Source: a phage. From it: DNA of 64,000 nt. A program made the translations under genes and the position numbers. Under the pieces are notes generated by a model. The model had not been told where the DNA came from, searched no databases, and saw nothing but the letters and a program-made list of their open reading frames with translations. The stretch lies in the sequence record PZ452584.1; one strand, 5' to 3'. Position 1 is the stretch's first letter. Each line of letters starts with the position of its first letter. Below are positions 1,777 to 54,454 of this stretch, one piece after another.

Positions 1777-1794
1777 AACATTTTCCTCAGTAAA

Positions 1795-1820
1795 GGGCCG
1801 AAGCCCTTTTCTTTTGTTTG
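1795..1820. other. GGGCCGAAGCCC hairpin in 5' leader, followed by T-run on plus strand
   Basis: Same hairpin sequence as at 38701 and 38929; strand of action ambiguous. Confidence 0.35.
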
Positions 1821-1877: not shown

Positions 1878-1907
1878 GAAAATAAAAAAGGACTCCCGAA
1901 GGAGTCC
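1878..1907 (-). terminator. intrinsic terminator (GGACUCC-UUCG-GGAGUCC hairpin + U-run on minus transcript)
   Basis: ggactcc cgaa ggagtcc at 1890-1907 preceded on plus strand by A-run 1881-1889. Confidence 0.65.
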
Positions 1908-1912
1908 TCAAC

Positions 1913-5702: not shown

Positions 5703-5703
<1 letters not shown>
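5506..5703 (-). CDS. hypothetical protein (65 aa)
   Basis: Track ORF immediately downstream of pseT. Confidence 0.45.
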
Positions 5704-6906
<1,203 letters not shown>

Positions 6907-6910
<4 letters not shown>

Positions 6911-8341: not shown

Positions 8342-9929
<1,588 letters not shown>

Positions 9930-11135: not shown

Positions 11136-11186
11136 AAATTTTCCGCTTAGTTAATAGTTAGTGACTCGTCCGTGAGTCAAATTATA

Positions 11187-13451
11187 TCATAATTTACAGG
11201 ATGAACAATCTTCAGCTTTTGGAGTTTCTATTTCATAATCATCAGTACCAGAACCATCACGGGTATTATGATAATAGAAATTTTTAATGCCATAATACCA
11301 TCCGTATAGCATATCATCAATCATTATTGACATTGGAACCTTTCCTTTTGGAAAAATCTGTGGGTCATAATATGTATTCGCCGAAGCTGATTGACATACC
11401 CATTTCAGCATAATAGCTACCTGCGTAAGATAAGGTTTATTACCTTTCTTAGCTAATTTCCATGTATAATCATATAGGTCTATGTTATGTTCAATATTGG
11501 GCACGACTTGATTAAAGGAACCCTCTTTTGATTCTTTAACAGAGACTGGTCCACGTGGAGGCTCGATACCGTTTGTACTGTTAGAAACTTGGGAAGATGA
11601 CTCACATGGCATAAGTGCTGATAGTGTGCTATTACGGATGCCAAAGAGCTTAAGGTCTTCCCGCAGCGACGACCAGTCACAAACGTATTTTGGAGCTGCG
11701 ATTTGGTCAATCTTTTTATTGTACCAGTCGATAGGTAATTCGCCTCGAGACCAACGAGTGTCTGAATAATATTCGCAAGGTCCTTTTTCTTTGGCGAGCT
11801 TAATGGATGCTTTAATGAGTCCATACTGTAATCTCTCAAATAGTTCATGTGTTAAATCGTTAGCATCTTCATAAGAAGCAAAGTTACTTGCCAGCCAAGC
11901 TGCATAGTTAGTAACACCTACACCAAGGTTACGACGCTTTTTAGCTTTTTCTGCTTCAGGAACTGGATATCCTTGGTAATCCAAAAGATTATCAAGAGCA
12001 CGAACTTGAACTTCTGCCAATTCATTAATTTTATCTTGGTCTTGCCAATCGAAGTTATCCAACACAAATGCAGATAACGTGCACAATCCAATTTCAGCAT
12101 CAGGGCTATTCACATCATTTGTTGGAATAGCAATTTCACAACACAAGTTACTCTGACGAATAGGTGCCTTTTCACGAATAAACGGAGTATAGTTATTCGT
12201 ATTATCAATGAACTGCACATAAATCCTTGCTGTTCCTGAGCGTTCAGTCATGAGCAATTCAAATAGTTCACGGGCTTTAATACGCTTTTTACGAATATTA
12301 GGGTCTTTTTCTGCTGCTTCGTATAATTCACGGAAACGGTCTTGGTCTTTAAAATAAGAATAATAAAGCTCACCACCCATTTCATGCGGACTGAACAAAG
12401 TAATGTAATCATTCTTTCCGAATCGTTCCATCATCAAATCATTCAGCTGAACACCATAATCCATATGACGAATGCGGTTTTCTTCTACGCCTTTGTTATT
12501 TTTCAAAACGAGAAGATTTTCAACTTCCAAATGCCAAATAGGATAATAAGCAGTAGCAGCGCCGCCACGAATTCCACCCTGTGAACATGATTTAACTGCG
12601 GTCTGAAAATGTTTCCAAAAAGGAATAACACCAGTATGGCGTACTTCACCCATGCCAATCTTAGAACCTTCGGCACGAATCATACCAACGTTAATACCAA
12701 TTCCAGCGCGTTTAGAGATATATTCAACAATTGAAGCGGAAGCCTTATTGATAGACTTTAATGAATCACCTGCCTCAATAACAACGCATGAACTAAACTG
12801 TCGAGTCGGAGTACGACAACCAGCCATAATAGGAGTTGGCAATGAAATCTGTCGAGTAGATACTGCTTCATAAAAACGGATAACATGTTTTAATCTATCA
12901 ACAGGTTCATCTTGATGCAGTGCCATTCCAATAGTCATAAATGCAAACTGTGGAGTTTCATAAATTTGACCAGTGGTTTTATCTTTGACTAGATATTTTT
13001 CTTTTAATTGCATCGCCCCGGAATAAGTAAATTCCATATCCCGCTCGTGCTTAATTTTTGATTCTAAAAATGTAATTTCTTCTGCTGAATATTTTGACAA
13101 TAATTCAGGGTCATATTTACCTTCATTTACACAGTAAGAAATATGGTCAATAAATGAACGTGGTTCATACTGCCCATAAACATGCTTACGAAGAGCAAAC
13201 ATTAAACAGCGTGCAGCTACATATTGATAATCAGGTTCTTCAACCGAAATAGAATTCGCAGCGGCCTTAATGACAATAGTCTGAATATCATCAGTTGTCA
13301 TTCCATCACGGAGATATGATTTAATATTTTCATATAATTCATAAGGATCTACTGATGTTCCCTCAGCTGCCCAAGATAAAACTTTAATAATTTTTTGTGG
13401 ATCAAAGCTCTGAGAAACACCACTACTTTTGATAACATTAATTAATTGCAT
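11187..13451 (-). CDS. nrdA: ribonucleotide reductase large subunit
   Basis: 754-aa ORF with ATP-cone N-terminus and active-site NxCxE region (SNLCCEIAIP); same length as T4 NrdA. Confidence 0.93.
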   Translation of the reverse strand: MQLINVIKSSGVSQSFDPQKIIKVLSWAAEGTSVDPYELYENIKSYLRDGMTTDDIQTIVIKAAANSISVEEPDYQYVAARCLMFALRKHVYGQYEPRSFIDHISYCVNEGKYDPELLSKYSAEEITFLESKIKHERDMEFTYSGAMQLKEKYLVKDKTTGQIYETPQFAFMTIGMALHQDEPVDRLKHVIRFYEAVSTRQISLPTPIMAGCRTPTRQFSSCVVIEAGDSLKSINKASASIVEYISKRAGIGINVGMIRAEGSKIGMGEVRHTGVIPFWKHFQTAVKSCSQGGIRGGAATAYYPIWHLEVENLLVLKNNKGVEENRIRHMDYGVQLNDLMMERFGKNDYITLFSPHEMGGELYYSYFKDQDRFRELYEAAEKDPNIRKKRIKARELFELLMTERSGTARIYVQFIDNTNNYTPFIREKAPIRQSNLCCEIAIPTNDVNSPDAEIGLCTLSAFVLDNFDWQDQDKINELAEVQVRALDNLLDYQGYPVPEAEKAKKRRNLGVGVTNYAAWLASNFASYEDANDLTHELFERLQYGLIKASIKLAKEKGPCEYYSDTRWSRGELPIDWYNKKIDQIAAPKYVCDWSSLREDLKLFGIRNSTLSALMPCESSSQVSNSTNGIEPPRGPVSVKESKEGSFNQVVPNIEHNIDLYDYTWKLAKKGNKPYLTQVAIMLKWVCQSASANTYYDPQIFPKGKVPMSIMIDDMLYGWYYGIKNFYYHNTRDGSGTDDYEIETPKAEDCSSCKL

Positions 13452-14008: not shown

Positions 14009-14869
14009 TTATACCGCCATTTTTCCTTTCAAGACACCGTAGGACTGATAATCTTTGAGAACGAAATCTTTAGGCCTGAGTTTAAGAACATATTCCAATT
14101 GTTCTTTAGTAGAAAGATAACGGAATTTATAAGGCAATCCGCCTATTACCAGTTCACAAAGCTCTTTAGGTTCACGACGCAAAATTTCTTTGCATTGTTC
14201 TACATGATTCATATAGATATGAGTATTACCACCAGAAAATATCAAATCTCCTGGAGTAAGATTACACATCTTAGCTATAATATGAACTAACGCAGCATAT
14301 GATGCAATATTAAATGGAAGGCCGAGAAAAACATCTACTGATCGTTGATACCACTGCAAATCCAAATAGCCATTACGCACATTAAACTGATAGAACATAT
14401 GACAAGGCGGTAATGCCATCTGCTTGATTTCAGCTGGATTCCATGCTGAAACGATTTGACGTCGATCAGTTGGTAATTTTTTAATACGATCAATAACTTC
14501 TACAATTTGGTCTACACCGCCAAAATCACGCCACTGTTTTCCATAAATTGGACCAAGTTCACCGCTATGGTATCCTAAATCTTTTGCTTGATTTTCGTAA
14601 TTTTCATCCCAGACTGTTTTGCCTTGGATTAACGAATCATGCTGAATTAATCGTAAATCATTGACATTTGTGCTTCCTGATAAAAACCATATTAACTCAG
14701 CAATGCAAGCTTTCCAAGCGAGCTTTTTAGTTGTTACCGCAGGAAAACCTTTAGTTAAATCCCAACGCAATTTAGTACCGAACAAAGCAATTGTTCCTGT
14801 GCCTGTTCGGTCATCGGTTTCATAACCATTTTCAAAAATGTCTTTAATTAAATCTTGGTATTGTTTCAT
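14009..14869 (-). CDS. td: thymidylate synthase (intron-less)
   Basis: 286-aa uninterrupted ORF with TS active-site region (LPPCHMFYQF); same length as spliced T4 Td. Confidence 0.93.
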   Translation of the reverse strand: MKQYQDLIKDIFENGYETDDRTGTGTIALFGTKLRWDLTKGFPAVTTKKLAWKACIAELIWFLSGSTNVNDLRLIQHDSLIQGKTVWDENYENQAKDLGYHSGELGPIYGKQWRDFGGVDQIVEVIDRIKKLPTDRRQIVSAWNPAEIKQMALPPCHMFYQFNVRNGYLDLQWYQRSVDVFLGLPFNIASYAALVHIIAKMCNLTPGDLIFSGGNTHIYMNHVEQCKEILRREPKELCELVIGGLPYKFRYLSTKEQLEYVLKLRPKDFVLKDYQSYGVLKGKMAV

Positions 14870-14914
14870 TTAGTACCTTATATAAATTATAATACATTTT
14901 ATGAAGCTAAATAA

Positions 14915-15274
14915 TCAATACGGTTTAGCATCAAATTTTCTCTCAATTTCAGGTGTGAAATATAATTCTTTACCGCGTTTGGAAAAGCGACCAATAATAT
15001 GATAATTATTCTCATCAAACGTAATATTACCAATATCCATAGCTTTCAACCAAATATCGATATTTCTATCCAGCTTTATGTCAAAATTCCAATACGGAGA
15101 ACTATTACCAAAAATACTACAAGCGGATTCAGTGAAACAGCTACTATAAATCTTGTCTTTAGGAACTACTAATTGATAGACACCTTTAATAAACTGAGGA
15201 CCTTGCCATTTTGGCTGTTTCGCGTCTTTTTCTAATAGAATAGGATAATAATTAAAATTCATATTTTCCGCCAC
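14915..15274 (-). CDS. hypothetical protein (115-119 aa) inserted between frd and td
   Basis: Long ORF in AT-rich DNA; first ATG at 15262 with weak SD, track start is GTG. Confidence 0.45.
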   Translation of the reverse strand: MAENMNFNYYPILLEKDAKQPKWQGPQFIKGVYQLVVPKDKIYSSCFTESACSIFGNSSPYWNFDIKLDRNIDIWLKAMDIGNITFDENNYHIIGRFSKRGKELYFTPEIERKFDAKPY

Positions 15275-15282
15275 GCGTTATT

Positions 15283-16363: not shown

Positions 16364-16440
16364 TTTATTCTCCAGTGTTTTAGTTGTTAACTCAGTATGG
16401 GACCATTATGTCATAGCCCCATTTGGTTGTACACTACTTT

Positions 16441-16812
16441 TTACTGAATATTAAAAGTTGCTTTAATCAGTGCAATGACTTCTGCCGCATTTTTATGATT
16501 TACCTGCACATGAATGGTTTGGGTATCAATATCAGGAGCATCGCCATCAACTTCCAGGAAGTGACAGAATTCCCATTCAGCGAGTTCAAAGTACTCGTCA
16601 GCATTATCATAAACAGACTTCAGGATGGTGCCATCTTTCATTTCAACTTTTTCGACAAAATAATCACCGTCGATATAACACATGTCCAGGACTTTAAAGG
16701 AACTGCCATGTTGTTCCATAATCTTAATCATGCGCGAATTGTTATCAGGACTACCAGCGATGAATTGTTTTTTGGCAGCAGGGTCTAATACGTAAAATTT
16801 ACCAATTTCCAT
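16441..16812 (-). CDS. hypothetical protein (123 aa), paralog of 16871-17251
   Basis: Track ORF trimmed to ATG 16812 with GAGGAAAA RBS; early promoter 16842-16871 upstream. Confidence 0.5.
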   Translation of the reverse strand: MEIGKFYVLDPAAKKQFIAGSPDNNSRMIKIMEQHGSSFKVLDMCYIDGDYFVEKVEMKDGTILKSVYDNADEYFELAEWEFCHFLEVDGDAPDIDTQTIHVQVNHKNAAEVIALIKATFNIQ

Positions 16813-18580: not shown

Positions 18581-18663
18581 TTTTATTTCCTTTTTAATTT
18601 AATTAACAGTTGGTGCTATGACGATGTATGACCTCATAGCTGGTCAGTGAGATAATTATAATC
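18581..18663 (-). promoter_or_regulatory. gene 32 5' leader (candidate autoregulatory translational operator)
   Basis: Unusually long A/U-rich leader ...uuaauuaaauuaaaaaggaaauaaaaAUG preceding gene 32. Confidence 0.45.
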
Positions 18664-18671
18664 TATTTATA
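18664..18671 (-). promoter_or_regulatory. late promoter TATAAATA upstream of gene 32
   Basis: tatttata on plus strand about 85 nt upstream of gene 32 start, inside gene 59 3' end. Confidence 0.5.
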
Positions 18672-18679
18672 ATAAGCAA

Positions 18680-25942: not shown

Positions 25943-25947
25943 ATTGA

Positions 25948-25972
25948 GGGAGCCTTCGGGTTCCCTTTTTTC
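25948..25972 (+). terminator. intrinsic terminator downstream of gene 35
   Basis: gggagcc ttcg ggttccc hairpin followed by TTTTTTC. Confidence 0.65.
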
Positions 25973-25974
25973 TT

Positions 25975-25982
25975 TATAAATA
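25975..25982 (+). promoter_or_regulatory. late promoter TATAAATA for gene 36
   Basis: Exact TATAAATA 24 nt upstream of gene 36 ATG, just after terminator. Confidence 0.7.
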
Positions 25983-26679: not shown

Positions 26680-29600
26680 ATGGCTACTTTAAAACAAATA
26701 CAATTTAAAAGAAGCAAAACCGCAGGAGCACGTCCTGCCGCTTCAGTATTAGCCGAAGGTGAATTGGCTATAAACTTAAAAGACCGTGTACTTTTTACTA
26801 AAGATGACCAAGGAAATATTATTGATCTTGGTTTTGCTAAGGGCGGTAGTATTGACGGGAATGTTATTCATATAGGAAACTATAACCAAACTGGTGATTA
26901 TACTTTAAATGGCGCATTAACTCAGACAGGTAATTTTAATTTAACTGGTATTGCTCGAGTAACTCGCGATATTATTGCCGCTGGGCAGATTATGACTGAA
27001 GGCGGAGAACTTATTACAAAAAGTTCAGGTACAGCACATGTTCGTTTTTTCGATGGCAATAGCCGCGAACGTGGAATCATTTATGCCCCGGCTAATGATG
27101 GTTTAACTACACAAGTACTTAATATCAGGGTTCAAGACTATGCCGCTGGTAGCGAAAGCACTTATGCATTTTCAGGCAGTGGCCTATTTACTTCACCTGA
27201 AGTATCAGCATGGAAATCTATTTCGTCTCCACAAATTCTGACCGACAAAGTTATTACAAACGGGAAGAAGACAGGCGATTATGATATCTATTCATTATCA
27301 AATAACACTCCATTGGCAGAAAGCGAAACGGCTATTAACCACCTCCGTGTTATGCGAAATGCTGTAGGAGCAGGTATTTTCCACGAAGTTAATGTTAATG
27401 ACGGAATAACCTGGTATTCCGGAGATGGCTTAAACACTTATCTTTGGTCGTTTAACTGGTCCGGTGGATTGAAAGCGGGTCATTCTATTTCTGTAGGTCT
27501 TCCTCACGGTTCTAAAAATTATTCAGAAATGGGCACGGCTTCTATTGCTTTAGGAGATAATGATACTGGGTTTCAATGGCATCAGGACGGATATTATTTT
27601 AGCGTTAATAATGGAATAAAAACGTTTTTATTTAGTCCCAGCGAAACAACTAGCCTAAGAAAATTTGTAGCTGGATATTCTACTAACGGAACCGATTTAA
27701 CTACTCCTCCGACTGAAAACTATGCTCTTGCTACTGTCGTGACATATCACGATAATAACGCGTTTGGAGATGGCCAGACTCTTTTAGGATATTATCAAGG
27801 CGGTAATTATCATCACTATTTCCGTGGTAAAGGTACTACAAACATTAATACTCACGGCGGTTTGTTAGTTACTCCCGGTAATGTAGATGTGGTCGGCGGC
27901 ATGGTTACCATTGATGGTAAAAATTATGCTTCTAGTGTGCTTTTTAAAGGAAATACTACAGGATATAGTTCAGTTGATAATATAGAGCTCAAAGTTTGGG
28001 GTGACACTTTTAATACGGTAGGTGGTACTCGTAAAAACGTAATGGAAACATCTGATGCTACTGGCTGGATGCATTATATTCAACGAACTACAGCAGGTAA
28101 AGTTGAGTCCTATTTAAATGGTACCATGAATGTAAATGAAAGCATCAACGTCAGTAAAGAAGTTAACGCCTCTGGCACTATTGCTAGTAATGCTGTCAAT
28201 GCGCTTCGCATTTGGAATGCAGATTATGGAGCCATTTTTAGACGTTCAGAAGGCAGTCTTCATATTATTCCAACTGCTTATGGTGAAGGCAAAAATGGTG
28301 ATATCGGTCCACTTCGCCCGTTTAGTATGGCTTTAGATACCGGTAAAGTTACTATTCCAGATTTACAATCAAGTTACAATACGTTCGCTGCGAACGGCTA
28401 TATTAAATTTGTTGGTCATGGAGCGGGTGCTGGCGAATATGATATTCAATACGACCAAGCAGCTCCCATTTTCCAGGAAATCGATGATGATGCCGTAAGT
28501 AAATATTACCCAATTGTTAAGCAAAAATACCTTCAAGGTAAAGCTGTGTGGTCTTTAGGTACTGAAATAGAATCTGGTACTTTTATTTTACATCATTTAA
28601 AAGAAGATGGAACACAAGCCCATACCTCAAGATTTAATGCTGATGGTACAGTTAACTTCCCTGATAACGTGCAGGTTGGTGGGGGTGAAGCTACTATTGG
28701 CAAAAATGGTAACATCTGGTCTGATATCTGGAAAACGTTTACTTCTGCCGGTGATGTAACCAATCTTCTTGGTGCTGTCTATAGCCGTGTTTCAAAAGAA
28801 GGCGATACGCTGACAGGCCGCTTAACTATTAATGCCAACTCGGATGCTATTGTTATTAACAGTGCTGCAACCGAATCTGGTTATGTGAAAGGACAAAAAG
28901 CAGGCGTTGATAACTGGTATGTAGGTAATGGCGGCGCCGATAATGCTCTATCGTTTTATAGTTTCAGAACCAATTCAGGCGTTAATATTCATAATAGTGG
29001 AGAAATTGCTTTAGCTCCTCAAGGGTCGGATACTTTTTATTTTAATAGGGACCGTCTTTATATAAAGGGTTCGCACTGGGTTGCACATAAATCTGGCGCT
29101 TGGGCCGACCAATGGGGCTTAGAAGCTCCTGTGTTTGTGGATTTTGGTAATGTTGGTAATGATAGTTATTATCCTATTATTAAAGGAAGATCTGGTATTA
29201 CGAATGAAGGATACATATCTGGTGTTGATTTTGGTATGCGACGCATTACTAATAACTGGGCACAAGGTATTATCCGTGTAGGTAATCAGGAAAACGGTTC
29301 CGACCCACAAGCTATCTATGAATTTCACCACAATGGAGTTATGTATGTTCCTAACATGGTTAAAACCGGAGCAAGATTATCAGCTGGCGCTGGTGACCCG
29401 GTGTGGCAAGGCGCATGCGTTGCTATTGGTGATAATGATACCGGATTAGTTCATGGTGGTGATGGGCGAATTAATATGGTTGCAAATGGAGTGCATATTG
29501 CTTCATGGTCTTCATCCCATCATGAACACACTGGGCTTTGGGGCACCGACGGCGCGTTTTGGACTGAAACCGGAAGAGCTATTATTTCATTTGGACATTT

Positions 29601-29988
29601 AATTCAACAGAATGACAGCTATTCAACATATGTCCGCGATGTTTATGTCCGCTCTGATATTCGTGTTAAAAAGAACCTCGTTAAATTTGAAAATGCTTCT
29701 GAGAAGCTTTCTAAAATTAACGGTTACACTTATATGCAGAAGCGAGGCCTAGATGAAGAAGGTAATCAGAAATGGGAACCTAACGCCGGTTTGATAGCTC
29801 AAGAAGTTCAAGCTATTTTACCAGAATTAGTTGAAGGTGACCCGGATGGTGAAGCTTTACTTCGTTTGAACTATAATGGTATAATTGGTTTAAATACAGC
29901 TGCAATCAATGAGCATACTGCAGAAATTGCAGAACTTAAGTCAGAGATTGAAGAGCTTAAAAAATTAGTTAAATCATTGTTAAAATAA
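26680..29988 (+). CDS. 37: gp37 long tail fibre distal subunit with C-terminal intramolecular-chaperone-like domain
   Basis: 1102-aa ORF following gene 36; N-terminus conserved with T-even gp37; C-terminus DIRVKKNL...coiled-coil resembles self-cleaving chaperone domains. Confidence 0.88.
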
Positions 29989-29993
29989 TAAGA

Positions 29994-30007
29994 GGGGCTT
30001 CGGCCCC
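29994..30007 (+). other. GGGGC-UUCG-GCCCC hairpin between genes 37 and 38
   Basis: No T-run; directly followed by gene 38 RBS, so probably a stabilising or processing hairpin. Confidence 0.4.
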
Positions 30008-30019
30008 TTGGAGGTTTAT

Positions 30020-30793
30020 ATGGCAGTTGAAGGACCGTGGGTAGGATGGTCTGCGAGGGTACAAACTGGAGACCCTTGGATGGGTGGTGCCGCGCAGAGA
30101 TTGAGAATGGGAATTCCGTTTTGGATGAGTAATATGATAGGTCGATCTGTTGAAGTAATTCACACCCTTGGAGCAGACCATAACTTCAATGGTCAATGGT
30201 TCCGAGACAGATGTTTTGAGGCAGGTAGTACACCTATAGTGTTTAATATCACTGGAGATTTAGTATCATATTCTAAAGATGTTCCTTTATTCTTCATGTA
30301 TGGAGATACACCGAATGAATATGTTCAGTTGAATATACACGGCGTAACGATGTATGGACGTGGCGGTAATGGCGGTAGCAATAGTCCTGGCTCAGCTGGA
30401 GGTCATTGTATTCAAAACGATATTGGTGGGAGACTAAGAATTAATAATGGTGGAGCTATTGCAGGCGGCGGTGGCGGCGGTGGCGGTGGTAACAGGGGTA
30501 GACTAGTATTTGGTGGTGGCGGTGGTCGCCCATTCGGCGGTGGCGGGTCTTCCTCTCATATGAGTTCTGCTGCAACCGCTGGCACCATTTACGCTCCGGG
30601 TGCAGGATCTGTCGGTGAGGGGTCTCTTAGTGCATATACAGGCGGGTCTGGTGGTGAAGTTGGCTCCGCAGGAGGTAGATGTAATACTCACGGTACCGGT
30701 ACAGAATATGACGGCGGTGCTGCTGGTTATGCCGTCATAGGGTCTGCTCCAACGTGGATAAATGTTGGAGCAATATATGGTCCAAGAGTATAA
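30020..30793 (+). CDS. 38: gp38 receptor-recognising adhesin (T2/T6 type, glycine-rich motifs)
   Basis: ATG 30020 with GGAGG 5 nt upstream; 257 aa with poly-Gly blocks ([26 protein letters not shown]); too long for T4-type gp38 chaperone (183 aa). Confidence 0.8.
30464..30547 (+). repeat. (GGY)n glycine-codon tracts inside gene 38
   Basis: ggcggcggtggcggcggtggcggtggt and two further GGY runs encoding poly-Gly blocks. Confidence 0.8.
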
Positions 30794-30823
30794 TTTGAAT
30801 AAATATCCTTAAAAGGAGGGTCT

Positions 30824-34335: not shown

Positions 34336-34485
34336 TTACTGCATGACTGTGATAACTGTCATGATAACACGTTGAATTCCGAACGCAAGAAGACCTCCTG
34401 CTACGGCTGGAACAACGCCTAAACCCGCCAGTAAAATGCTACCGGATACTAATGCAGCGCTTGTAATACCAATGAATGGACTCAT
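34336..34485 (-). CDS. small hydrophobic peptide (49 aa), unlisted in track
   Basis: ATG overlaps gene 52 stop (ATGA); MSPFIGITSAALVSGSILLAGLGVVPAVAGGLLAFG...; followed by terminator 34304-34330. Confidence 0.4.
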   Translation of the reverse strand: MSPFIGITSAALVSGSILLAGLGVVPAVAGGLLAFGIQRVIMTVITVMQ

Positions 34486-35810
34486 TTGATTTCCTCTAAA
34501 TCTTTAGTGTATTCTGTAACTACATCAGTAGTTTTCCAATATTCGTTTTCTTCTTTTTTGGCTTTAGCTTCTTCAGCAAGTTTCTTCGCTTCATCGGAAG
34601 TCATATGAAAAATATTCATTCCAACCAGTTTATCAACATAAGAAGAATACATATTGATTTTCGAAAGTTCTTCGGTCAGTTCTTTACGAGTTTTACCCTG
34701 TACAACAATTTCACCTGAAATTACTTTCTTAATGAAATGTGCCTTGGCAAAGGCTAAACGAAAAGCGGACTCAGTTTCTTTAATTTTGTTATCAATTCGT
34801 TTTTGGACATAAGTTTTACGAACTTCAACAAAGTCTTTAATTAAATCAACTACGTTATCGTAAACTTGTAGTTTTCCTTTCTCATTAATAACCGTAATAT
34901 TCTGAGAACGACGCTCAATCAACCCGAAGTCTTTCATAATTTTTGCATGACGTTCTTCTTCATTATCGCTCAAAGAATATTCTTTGCGGAATTTAACTTT
35001 GAATCCAAAACCATGCTCACCACAAGCATCATCCCATGTAATGAAGCCTTTATCTTCAAGTGGGTCTAAGATTTTACTCACATAAGTTTCACGATCATAC
35101 TTATACGGAATCTCAGTGATATTCATTTGAGTTCGTGAAGTAAACTTGTACGTTCCACGAATTTCATATTGCCCATCAATTTCAACGACTTCACCACGAA
35201 ATTCTGGGAATTCTACCTTCGGTTTAGTTACTTTCTTTCCTTGAAGAGCTTGTAATACAGCTTTCTTGACAGAAGAAACACTATGAGGAAGAATGTAAGT
35301 TGCATAACCAGTTGCAATACCGGAAACGCCATTAAGAAGAACAGTAGGAATAATAGGCAAATAGAAAGCAGGCGGAATGTGTTCTTTATCTTGATGTACC
35401 GGAGCATATTCAGTATCTTTATATACGTTATAGAAATTTTTACTTACACGAGCAAAAATATAACGACTTGCTGCTGCTTTTTGGACGGTACGAGAACCAA
35501 AGTTTCCTTGACCATCTAACAGAGGAAAGTTATTATTCCAAGTGTTAGCCATCAAAGCACCTGCGTCTTGCGCAGAGTTTTCACCATGATGATATCCAAG
35601 GTCCGCTACACCACCTGCAATAGAAGCGAGTTTGTGAAACTTATCTTTATTTCCTCGTGCCAAATCAAGAGCTCGAGCAATAACAAATCGTTGAACTGGC
35701 TTAAATCCGTCAATCATATTTGGGATAGCACGATTTTCAACCGTGTACATAGCATAAGCCAATGCTTCATTATCAATGATACTTTTTAAATCGCGATTAT
35801 TCAGTTGCAT
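34482..35810 (-). CDS. 52: gp52 topoisomerase II medium subunit (GyrA-like)
   Basis: 442-aa ORF MQLNNRDLKSIIDNEALAYAMYTVENRAIPNMIDGFKPVQRFV...; same length as T4 gp52. Confidence 0.92.
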   Translation of the reverse strand: MQLNNRDLKSIIDNEALAYAMYTVENRAIPNMIDGFKPVQRFVIARALDLARGNKDKFHKLASIAGGVADLGYHHGENSAQDAGALMANTWNNNFPLLDGQGNFGSRTVQKAAASRYIFARVSKNFYNVYKDTEYAPVHQDKEHIPPAFYLPIIPTVLLNGVSGIATGYATYILPHSVSSVKKAVLQALQGKKVTKPKVEFPEFRGEVVEIDGQYEIRGTYKFTSRTQMNITEIPYKYDRETYVSKILDPLEDKGFITWDDACGEHGFGFKVKFRKEYSLSDNEEERHAKIMKDFGLIERRSQNITVINEKGKLQVYDNVVDLIKDFVEVRKTYVQKRIDNKIKETESAFRLAFAKAHFIKKVISGEIVVQGKTRKELTEELSKINMYSSYVDKLVGMNIFHMTSDEAKKLAEEAKAKKEENEYWKTTDVVTEYTKDLEEIK

Positions 35811-35947
35811 AAATTTACCATACTAGTGAATGTAGTGCCATAATAACATCAGAAATGAAAAGCACGACTTGAATTAATCCGAACATTACTCCATAATATA
35901 GTGCTACCAATAAAGTAGCAAGGGATAATGAATAGCCCAAGATTTTC

Positions 35948-36106
35948 TTAATCATTAGTAGATAACAACACAAATGTTAAATATGCACACATACCCTGGG
36001 CTAAAGCTTGTGAAAACACACTGCTAGCATCGATACAGATAGTTAAAACACATGCTACTATCCAACAAATAAATGAAATAACTCCTAATAATTTTGCGAT
36101 ATTCAT
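35948..36106 (-). CDS. small membrane peptide (52 aa), paralog of ac
   Basis: Trimmed to ATG 36106 with GAGGAGAA RBS; ...SVFSQALAQGMCAYL shares motif with ac-like peptide. Confidence 0.45.
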   Translation of the reverse strand: MNIAKLLGVISFICWIVACVLTICIDASSVFSQALAQGMCAYLTFVLLSTND

Positions 36107-36116
36107 AATATTCTCC

Positions 36117-36272
36117 TCAACTATTTTTAGAACCAATGTACGCGAATAATGATAAAATCGCTAATACGCCCTGAGCTGATGCTTGCAAAAATACTGAAGT
36201 TTCTCCAGTTATTACTGTTCCGATGCATAAAAAGAACCAACAGAAAAAGGCTATACCGTGAACAAATTTCAT
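36117..36272 (-). CDS. ac: Ac-like 51-aa membrane peptide (acridine sensitivity)
   Basis: Unlisted ORF; ATG 36272 with GAGGAAAA RBS; 51 aa as T4 Ac; position between 52 and stp. Confidence 0.55.
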   Translation of the reverse strand: MKFVHGIAFFCWFFLCIGTVITGETSVFLQASAQGVLAILSLFAYIGSKNS

Positions 36273-36279
36273 ATTTTCC

Positions 36280-36360
36280 TCACTGGCGTCCGAAGACGCC
36301 TTTGGTTTTAAGATTGTTACGATAGAACTGCATCACATGTTCGTTATGGAAATTACTCAT
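36280..36360 (-). CDS. stp: Stp peptide (26 aa; activator of host PrrC anticodon nuclease)
   Basis: Unlisted ORF translating to [26 protein letters not shown], matching T4 Stp as I recall it; start overlaps ndd stop (TAATG). Confidence 0.8.
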
Positions 36361-36803
36361 TAATATGCCTGCAAAACAAATTTAAAGTTATCAGCCAACA
36401 TACGGTTCATTTCTTCAAGTGTTTGATACTCAGAATGATGATTACGAGTAAACGCTAAAGCTAACTGACCTTTTCCAAATCCTGTCGTCAGAGGTTTCAT
36501 CTTAGAAGCAGGCAGATAAAATACTGTGTATACCATATTGTTATTTGCAATAGTACGCGCAAGTTGAGACCGGCGTTGACGAATATGACTTAAAACCGCA
36601 CTAAATCCTTGCTTAGAACGCTGATTACCTACATAAAATCGTGCAGATACGCATGAACCATCGAATTCACTTACTAAAAAGTAAAATCCAGGTTTAGACA
36701 AAATGTCTTTATGCGGGGTTCCCAAAAACCATTCACCACCCTTAATTGTACCAATAACAGTTGCGCCTGCATTATTCAGATCAGTAACAGTCATATATTT
36801 CAT
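36360..36803 (-). CDS. ndd: Ndd nucleoid-disruption protein
   Basis: 147 aa from ATG 36803 ([18 protein letters not shown]...) with GAGGAAA RBS; flanked by stp as in T4. Confidence 0.7.
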
Positions 36804-37193
36804 TTTAATTTCCTCTAAATTATTTTCTACTCCAAGGCCGCATGAATACACACGGCCGATAAATTAATCGTCGCAGTCGACGCTCAATTCCCAAAACTCT
36901 TCTACGGTATAAGTTTCAGTATCATTTTCAATACAGAAACGTTCATTACTGTTATTTGCTAAAGTAGCGTTAACTGTCATTTTCTCGCTAGTCTCTTAAG
37001 AGGTGAAATACGAATTAACTGATCACCATTATCTAAACAAAAAATTTCACCAACTTTTACATCTTTAAAAATTTTCATAATTCACCTCAGGGAGTATAAA
37101 ATCCAAATGCAGTTGTTGACCATCCCATCCAATATGGGATATTTGCGCCAATGTAAAATACAAGAATATAAAACCAAATGCTTAGTAAATTCA

Positions 37194-37787: not shown

Positions 37788-37994
37788 TCAATAATCCGCT
37801 AAAAGATCGACGATTGCATCACGAAGACACTTATTCGCAATACGTTTAAGAGCAATTTCAGTTTCTGGAGCATTTTGAATAATCATTGAATTCAATTCAG
37901 CCTCAGCAAACTGAAGTTCTTTAACTAATTCAGCTTTATATTTTCCTTGCCCTTTCTTAGCTTTTGCTCGTTTTAATTCAGCTGTAGTAAACAT
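37788..37994 (-). CDS. hypothetical protein (68 aa)
   Basis: Trimmed to ATG 37994 with GGAG RBS downstream of promoter cassette 38029-38058. Confidence 0.5.
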   Translation of the reverse strand: MFTTAELKRAKAKKGQGKYKAELVKELQFAEAELNSMIIQNAPETEIALKRIANKCLRDAIVDLLADY

Positions 37995-38912: not shown

Positions 38913-38940
38913 AATTTTCCTCAGTTAAGGGCCGAAGCCC

Positions 38941-39879
38941 TTATTTAAATTGTTCAGTAACGTCTTCAACTACTTCGTATTGGCAGGTACGCATTTTAGC
39001 ATCGTTGTAATCAATCGGAATTGATACTACATCACGTGGATGTACTTTAACTTTTACAACTCGGCTGGTTGAACTGCCAAAGTGACGAATATAAGATTTA
39101 GAACACACATGCAGACCACGAGAACAAGTTTGTGTATCATCGTCATTCACACGAGTACGTGGCATTTTAACTACTTTACCCGGACTGTTATCAAAGGTAT
39201 TTGAGTGACAGTCAAAGTAATTGCTGCGAACTACTTTCCAAGCATAGAAGTAACCATCTTCTGTAATTTCAATATCGTTTGCTACTAAGAAATCAAAGAG
39301 TCGAGATACCGCTTTTTGGCTTGGGTTTTCCAACAGATTTTCCAGGAACGGAAAATAAAATTCAAAGTTTTCACCTTTTTCCATCGAATCGAGAATACGA
39401 TCAACCAAACCAGACCGCAATTCAATATTTTGATAGAACAAGCTTCCACCTTCAATTCGAACATCACCGGAAATATATTTTTCAACAGCGCGACGAACAT
39501 TAATTTTTTGTGCCGCTTCTTCTAACTTATCTGCTACGAGCAGATTAAGAATTTCCTGGAAGTTTGAATGAGTATTAGGAGTTGCGTTATAAGTTACACC
39601 ATCGACAGTAATTGAAATGAATTTTTTAGATGCATTCCAAATAATGTCAGATTTAGCAACTGGAGCAATAACTGCATCGCTATTAACTTTAACTGTAATA
39701 TCACCGCTAATAGTAACTTTAGAGTGTTTAGCTTCTTCAGCATTTTTCAAAACACGACGGATTGTGTCAACCGATACACCTTGCCAATCAGCCAATTCCT
39801 GTTGGGTGTAATTACCACTTGAATACAGCTTAACAATTTCAGCTTGTTCGTTTTTGGTCAGGCATTTAATATTGTACAT
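38941..39879 (-). CDS. rIIB: rIIB rapid-lysis protein
   Basis: 312-aa ORF MYNIKCLTKNEQAEIVKLYSSGNYTQQELADWQGVSVDTIRRVLKNAEEAK; matches T4 rIIB. Confidence 0.95.
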   Translation of the reverse strand: MYNIKCLTKNEQAEIVKLYSSGNYTQQELADWQGVSVDTIRRVLKNAEEAKHSKVTISGDITVKVNSDAVIAPVAKSDIIWNASKKFISITVDGVTYNATPNTHSNFQEILNLLVADKLEEAAQKINVRRAVEKYISGDVRIEGGSLFYQNIELRSGLVDRILDSMEKGENFEFYFPFLENLLENPSQKAVSRLFDFLVANDIEITEDGYFYAWKVVRSNYFDCHSNTFDNSPGKVVKMPRTRVNDDDTQTCSRGLHVCSKSYIRHFGSSTSRVVKVKVHPRDVVSIPIDYNDAKMRTCQYEVVEDVTEQFK

Positions 39880-54423: not shown

Positions 54424-54447
54424 AAAAAGGACTCCCGAAGGAGTCCT
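54424..54447 (-). terminator. intrinsic terminator downstream of soc
   Basis: ggactcc cgaa ggagtcc at 54430-54447 (same hairpin as 1890-1907) preceded by A-run. Confidence 0.65.
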
Positions 54448-54454
54448 TGAATTA

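Follow-up and report, generated by a model that had tools for sequence, protein, structure and literature searches.

The stretch analysed here is 64,000 nucleotides of phage DNA (sequence record PZ452584.1; hereafter the window), in which a run of very small genes lies between gene 52, encoding the medium subunit of topoisomerase II (34482..35810), and ndd, encoding the nucleoid disruption protein (36360..36818; PF06591, E 5e-87). All genes of the locus are on the minus strand, with ndd as the upstream neighbour and gene 52, which is annotated in the T4 and Bas41 records, as the downstream one. Between the two we find four small open reading frames with credible start sites. In the direction of transcription these are stp (36280..36360; 26 aa), a 51-aa member of the ac family that we call type B (36117..36272), a 52-aa member that we call type A (35948..36106), and 52.1, which encodes a hydrophobic peptide of 46 aa (35815..35955; DUF7396, PF24129, E 8e-23; PHROG 3595). 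The original prediction counted three tiny genes at this place; the 52-, 51- and 26-aa frames that it described are all present, and 52.1 had been overlooked. The packing is tight throughout. The ATG of stp shares one base with the stop codon of ndd, and type A and 52.1 overlap by 8 nt. Because start and stop codons either overlap or are separated by no more than 10 nt, the genes of the ndd-stp-ac-52.1-52 block are probably translationally coupled.

A segment of 801 bases around the locus has matches in 566 phage records, and identity is highest, at 99.4%, with the Tequatrovirus members Shigella phage Sf22 and Escherichia phages ADUt, vB_Eco_Geo, and ECML-134. Phage T4 is 94.7-97.3% identical to the window in the aligned blocks of the stp/ac locus. 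Over the window as a whole the two are colinear, the T4 counterpart running from roughly position 128,000 to where rIIB ends, with aligned blocks that are 81-99% identical. Judged by these sequence matches, the window belongs to a T4-like phage of the genus Tequatrovirus. Rfam and tRNA scans of the window returned no matches, a sigma-70 promoter scan of the window performed no better than it did on shuffled sequences, and searches for MotA boxes and late promoters gave nothing informative near the stp/ac locus.

The 26-aa peptide shares all 26 residues with T4 Stp, scores 75.3 bits against PF08133 (Nuclease_act; cut-off 25, E 2e-21), and falls into PHROG 6763, as expected from its earlier identification as Stp. 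It occupies the same place after ndd as in T4, in the same gene order. In T4, Stp inhibits type IC restriction by EcoprrI and also by EcoR124I, and its N-proximal 18 residues are important for function (PMC3014915). Inhibition of EcoprrI in prr+ cells unmasks the anticodon nuclease PrrC, which cuts tRNA-Lys, and the cut tRNA is healed by T4 Pnk and sealed by Rnl1 (PMC3014915, PMC12707154). On the strength of its identity to the T4 peptide, we take the Stp encoded here to be an inhibitor of type IC restriction and an activator of PrrC, which is the established T4 story. The original prediction presented Stp as the trigger of PrrC. That mechanism is well established for T4 but is an incomplete account, since the phage-side function of the peptide is inhibition of type IC restriction and PrrC is the counter-move of the host (PMC3014915); Stp is better described as an anti-restriction peptide whose presence the host has learned to detect.

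Both genes of the repair arm, pseT (5703..6608, minus strand) and rnlA (8342..9466, minus strand), lie where they had been placed and are full length. PseT, the polynucleotide 5′-kinase/3′-phosphatase, covers residues 1-301 of T4 Pnkp (PDB 1LTQ; E 2e-206) and combines an N-terminal P-loop kinase domain (PF13671) with a C-terminal HAD phosphatase domain (PF25109). It contains K15, D35, R38, R126, D165, and D167, which we take from the T4 Pnkp literature to be the catalytic residues. RnlA, RNA ligase 1, matches PDB 2C5U (E 6.5e-254) and consists of a nucleotidyltransferase domain (PF09511) followed by the Rnl1-specific C-terminal domain (PF20819). It carries TKEDG with K99 (KxDG) as well as E159, K240, and K242, presumably its catalytic residues, going by T4 enzymology.

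Stp of the window phage would thus inhibit type IC restriction enzymes and, in prr+ hosts, unmask the PrrC anticodon nuclease; PseT would then heal and RnlA seal the resulting cut in tRNA-Lys, and the window encodes both enzymes intact. The circuit formed in T4 infection by stp, the E. coli prr locus (EcoprrI-PrrC), and pseT plus rnlA was reportedly described by Penner et al. in 1995. With an identical Stp and with near-identical, full-length PseT and Rnl1 that keep the catalytic residues, the window shows no substantive difference from it, the host prr locus being outside the window and the phage being known here from its sequence. The proposal that the window holds a complete trigger-and-repair set stands for the phage side (stp, pseT, and rnlA) but not for the host prr locus, which is absent from the window. 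This circuit is textbook material to which the present analysis adds nothing new, and the locus as originally described is known T4 biology, with the second ac-family gene a minor variant and not a new kind of system.

In the alignment with T4, the 52-aa peptide differs from Ac, the acridine-sensitivity protein of T4 (51 aa), only by the insertion of a single Thr. Its gene has the same flanks as T4 ac and the same overlap with 52.1: it is preceded by a Shine-Dalgarno (SD) sequence of its own, GAGGAG, and its stop codon overlaps the start of 52.1 (AATGATTAAG). The 51-aa gene next to stp lies in its entirety within a 166-bp stretch that is wholly absent from T4 and occupies a different position, its end (AATAGTTGA) being upstream of the ac SD. 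We file it as a paralog and not as ac because its stop codon does not overlap the start of 52.1. The 52-aa gene distal to stp is accordingly assigned, by sequence and position, as the ortholog of T4 ac, and the stp-adjacent 51-aa gene as an extra ac-family paralog. Alignment with T4 stp and ac had been proposed as the check on these genes, and it leaves the 51-aa gene with no T4 counterpart; the ribosome-binding site next to stp, which had been called that of ac, belongs to the paralog. The SD of the ac ortholog (36107..36116, minus strand) contains GGAG, which we take to be the target motif of the RegB endoribonuclease; the single ac gene of T4 has GAGGAA.

The two peptides are 43% identical (17/40 positions, E 6e-10), and both match PHROG 2501 at E values below 1e-24 (5e-26 for type B). 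The shared motif S-V-F-x-Q-A-x-A-Q-G, on which the two had been proposed to be paralogs, is present in both, and a looser signature, V-F-x-Q-A-x-x-Q-G, is kept in every cluster of the Ac family. The family is narrow, since a profile search of 1.84 billion proteins retrieved only six credible clusters; a homolog search with the paralog returned only seven. A Pfam search with the Ac peptides gave no match, and PF26944 is listed in precomputed tables for two Ac relatives. The AlphaFold2 model of type B is a two-helix hairpin (helices 2-22 and 25-50; mean pLDDT 77.7), and the two Ac-family peptides have GRAVY values of 1.15 and 1.42. Given the two predicted helices of the 51-aa model and the high GRAVY values, the description of these products as membrane peptides is a reasonable one, and type B is predicted to be a two-helix membrane peptide.

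Current literature on Ac concerns the T4-type protein. Ac reportedly makes infection sensitive to acriflavine, and a block of AcrAB-TolC has been proposed to underlie this effect (2025 preprint, bioRxiv 10.1101/2025.06.30.662393), a view repeated in a 2026 PNAS paper (PMC13250531). The AcrAB-TolC model is a preprint hypothesis and not an established mechanism. Neither of these two Ac papers (10.1101/2025.06.30.662393, PMC13250531) mentions a second ac-like gene, and we found no discussion of one in the literature. The Ac ortholog of the window phage may raise intracellular acridine, as reported for Ac, possibly by blocking AcrAB-TolC, and type B may be an older paralog that T4 lacks. By description and not by sequence, Ac can be compared with E. 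coli AcrZ, a small inner-membrane modulator of efflux pumps. Both are helical, membrane-embedded peptides of about 50 aa, but AcrZ has one helix where Ac has two predicted ones, and the effect proposed for Ac is inhibition and not modulation. Two points at this locus are modestly new, the existence of a conserved but unstudied Ac paralog and the polymorphism of the slot that holds the two genes; both are relevant to ongoing studies of acridine sensitisation by Ac in infected cells. There is also a consequence for annotation, as “ac” is often put on the wrong member of the tandem or on both. In the BASEL record of Bas41 (FriedrichZschokke), a phage that is 99.0% identical to the window at this locus and has an identical type B gene, the distal gene is labelled “acridine resistance protein” and its stp-proximal neighbour “hypothetical”; a second ac-family gene is visible elsewhere in database annotations as “acridine resistance (x2)”.

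The polymorphism becomes apparent across phage records. We find stp DNA in 592 of them, type A in 460, type B, with its diverged forms, in 93, and a B-to-A junction like that of the window in 51. RB51 has type B only, and the fusion of this gene to the 52.1 overlap matches that of type A in T4. A third occupant, type C, is an unrelated hydrophobic peptide of 53 aa (MVILVFIEL...) that sits in the ac slot between the same flanking junctions. It was seen in three T4-like contigs from IMG/VR (L006, L008, and L016) as M(V/I)ILVFIELIMAIVCSVCFFLGVW...KND, directly 3′ of stp and with the usual 5′ junction, GAGGAAAATATG; the ...KND 3′ end is found in L006 and L008, and the reading frame in L016 runs to 70 aa. 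In L008, the DNA 5′ of stp is not ndd.

Short repeats flank the exchanged units, GAGGA-AATAT-ATGAA at the ribosome-binding site and start and AAT-RRTT-RA at the 3′ ends. The 166-bp indel of the window has GAGGAAAATATGAA before the paralog and GAGGAGAATATTATGAA before ac, and the single ac of T4 has the first version. Such repeats could let recombination delete or swap units, which would yield the A-only, B-only, B+A, and unrelated-cassette arrangements. Two natural rearrangements reach into stp itself. In fHoEco02 (L018 701..787), Stp residues 1-18 are fused to the C-terminus of type B in a 28-aa product, and in Sf25 (L019 701..760), Stp is cut to 19 aa and the 5′ two-thirds of ac are deleted, which destroys ac. 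Both keep N-proximal Stp, the part to which its function is attributed (PMC3014915), and lose the hairpin described below.

The 51-aa frame might instead be a duplication remnant with no function, and not a working second Ac-type protein. T4 and most of its relatives manage without type B, some 409 records seem to have type A alone (460 − 51), and the gene has no literature that we could find, all of which would fit a remnant. The frame is intact, however, with a canonical SD and AUG; its protein occurs with 100% identity in 40 records; and in RB51-type phages it is the sole ac-family gene. Retention of the family signature at only 43% identity to type A furthermore points to long purifying selection. 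We consider it unlikely that type B is a remnant, and read it as a second ac-family gene.

The last codons of stp contain an inverted repeat that had been reported as GGCGTC-CGAA-GACGCC, and it lies exactly where predicted, at 36285..36300, in this plus-strand reading. In the mRNA, which is read from the minus strand, the element is a C(UUCG)G hairpin, GGCGUC-UUCG-GACGCC, that appears in both the minimum-free-energy and the centroid fold. It spans stp codons 21-25 (G-V-F-G-R) and the first base of codon 26. Immediately 3′ lies a UGAGGAAAAU junction (36273..36282, minus strand), in which the stop codon of stp (36280..36282) overlaps the SD of the paralog, GAGG (36278..36281), and which is followed by the AUG at 36270..36272. 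The hairpin had been described as sitting over the ribosome-binding site of ac. It ends 3 nt short of the SD, which it abuts without covering, and that SD is the paralog's.

Hairpins of this kind are frequent in the window. CTTCGG occurs 25 times against 13.5 expected, and C(UUCG)G hairpins with a stem of at least 6 bp number 10, compared with the 0.095 expected from 200 dinucleotide shuffles; the sites include 1780..1809, 38914..38943, 1888..1909, 25946..25967, and 54427..54448. The UGAGGAAAAU sequence occurs at seven sites against 0.43 expected, with a stable hairpin just 5′ of it at four of the seven. A module consisting of the hairpin, A[C/G]TGAGGAAAAT, and ATG is present in three copies (1780..1809, 36273..36300, and 38914..38943). 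C(UUCG)G is known as an extra-stable motif that was first noticed in T4 mRNA (PMC4371310). The copy in stp has the features of that class, namely a UUCG loop, a closing C:G pair, a G+C-rich 6-bp stem, and a location at a gene junction of an early transcript; it departs from the class in lying inside a coding sequence and not in an intercistronic spacer, and in having no U-tract after it. An account of the C(UUCG)G hairpins of T4 mRNA is said to have been given by Tuerk et al. in 1988.

Codon choice in the stp tail is unusual. All five codons of the hairpin are minority codons in the window, with a joint probability of 1.4e-4, and among the 3072 possible encodings of K-G-V-F-G-R-Q the real one is among the eight most stable (usage-weighted p 2.8e-4). 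In Kagunavirus, stp keeps G-V-F-G with the codons GGG/GGA GTG TTT GGA AAA and forms no stem. Since these phages keep the peptide without the hairpin codons, the stem is an overlay specific to T4-like phages. We had also considered that the C-terminal tail of Stp exists only to encode the hairpin, and rejected this because the siphophage homologs keep G-x-(F/L)-G-(K/R) without a stem. Among T4-like phages the stem is nearly invariant and gives no covariation; its sole change is a C-to-U substitution that produces a G·U pair at the stem base. The natural variants fHoEco02 and Sf25, which have no hairpin, indicate that it is dispensable for viability. The 111-nt region overall folds no better than its shuffles (z = −1.05).

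We infer from these features that the hairpin is a local folding or decay barrier that precedes an initiation site, where it would keep the SD single-stranded and protect a processed mRNA end, and that it is neither a switch that occludes the SD nor an efficient terminator on the sense strand. It is probably one copy of a recurring T4 module, in which an extra-stable C(UUCG)G hairpin stands a few nucleotides ahead of a UGAGGAAAAU-AUG initiation site; in this copy, rare G/C-ending codons at the end of stp supply the hairpin.

Termination is the most obvious competing function, with the hairpin as a Rho-independent terminator that ends an ndd-stp transcript and leaves ac and 52.1 to be expressed by read-through only. 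Record MK327944.1 annotates exactly this stem, on the gene strand, as “putative transcriptional terminator, -10.30”, other records have “terminator” under stp, and U-runs follow three further C(UUCG)G hairpins of the window, which have the look of true terminators. On the sense strand, however, the stem in stp is followed by AGUGAGGAAAAUAUG, a tail (AGUGAGGAAAAU) with no U-tract, and a consensus scan of the minus strand makes no call here. The next gene starts 12 nt further on, its SD overlaps the stp stop, and the genes continue without a gap into essential gene 52. Our search of the literature found no mention of a terminator or a processing site at stp. Sense-strand termination is rather unlikely. 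On the plus strand the prospects are different at first sight, since there the stem runs into the T-rich TTTGGTTTTA and the scan calls the site terminator-like, as would suit a terminator for antisense or late-strand read-through. But that T-run is a mere complement of the Stp codons L-K-T-K, the loop in this orientation is CGAA, which is not a specially stable tetraloop, and the nearest upstream late-promoter consensus on the plus strand lies at 25975, a distance of about 10 kb. Both the UUCG reading and the UGAGGAAAAU module shared downstream favour the sense strand, and we regard plus-strand action of the repeat as quite improbable.

The reading given in the original prediction, an operator that sequesters the SD, has in its favour the closeness of the stem to the SD and, in the centroid fold, a weak second stem that pairs GUGAG with UUCAC in paralog codons 4-5. 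Yet the stable stem (36300..36285) ends at 36285, which leaves both the SD (36281..36278) and the AUG outside it. The weak stem 3′ of the hairpin, considered as the SD-pairing element, was rejected: it is not conserved, RB51 having GTTAAT where the window has GTTCAC. Sequestration of the SD is highly improbable for these reasons, and a barrier that leaves the SD accessible is the reading that we retain. Annotation of the hairpin has a history of its own. MK327944.1 misses stp altogether and labels its 3′ hairpin (L025 461..476) an intergenic terminator, a mis-call that follows from stp being unannotated in that record. The stp coding sequence is also absent from many other records; at 26 aa, it falls below the length limits of gene callers.

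Taken as a whole, the locus is very likely the standard early-gene block ndd-stp-ac-52.1-52, which combines the trigger-and-repair function with a polymorphic ac slot and a copy of the recurring hairpin module. A more speculative extension, which we put forward as possible but doubtful, is that recombination has made a cassette site of the slot between stp and 52.1, where types A, B, and C are swapped or stacked, each perhaps tuned to a different envelope target such as RND efflux pumps, with the UUCG hairpin in the stp tail as a 5′ boundary element that sets the expression of whichever cassette follows. If so, phages with the B+A arrangement would need to lose both genes to become resistant to acridines.

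Beyond this locus, the window differs from T4 in several places. It is without the nrdB intron with I-TevIII, mobE, the td intron with I-TevI, segG, and genes 30.7-30.8, an assignment based on where the gaps of the blastn map lie and how large they are (10460, 11136..11190, 14321..14327, 18644..18678, and 1806/1807). Conversely, 6609..6903, 14873..15277, 16374..16809, 37790..37991, and 26847..30798 have no match in the compared T4 region; these stretches include a 100-aa open reading frame (6608..6910) at the place of T4 pseT.1 and the diverged distal tail-fibre region (genes 37/38).

Stp-like peptides, for the most part unannotated, also occur outside the T-even phages. We searched with a degenerate DNA pattern and with tblastn; the latter gave 707 records that contain Stp-like sequence, of which 133 fall at 60-80% identity. 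Siphophages of the genus Kagunavirus encode an unannotated 25-aa peptide that ends in (T/A)KGVFGK (loci L003, L004, and also L012-L015). In Raoultella phage RP180 (L003 2501..2578), it is identical to T4 Stp at 24/25 positions, and in Escherichia phage K1ind3 (L004 2501..2578) at 23/25 or 24/25. In both phages the gene lies directly 3′ of the endolysin gene and does not have the UUCG hairpin codons. More diverged peptides were found in BubbaBully (L020 1201..1296), Bas95 (L021 1201..1278), and P818 (L022 1201..1278), and Drexlerviridae (P818 and BubbaBully) and other siphophages of 42-56 kb have in common the N-terminal core MS(N/S)(F/H)(H/F)NEHVMQ. The 11-kb region examined around the BubbaBully peptide has no annotated RNA ligase, and about 650 bp 3′ of the peptide there is a 178-aa “polynucleotide kinase” gene. 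If Stp-like peptides are indeed common in siphophages that have no RNA ligase, PrrC-type sensing of anti-restriction peptides may extend well beyond the T-even phages.
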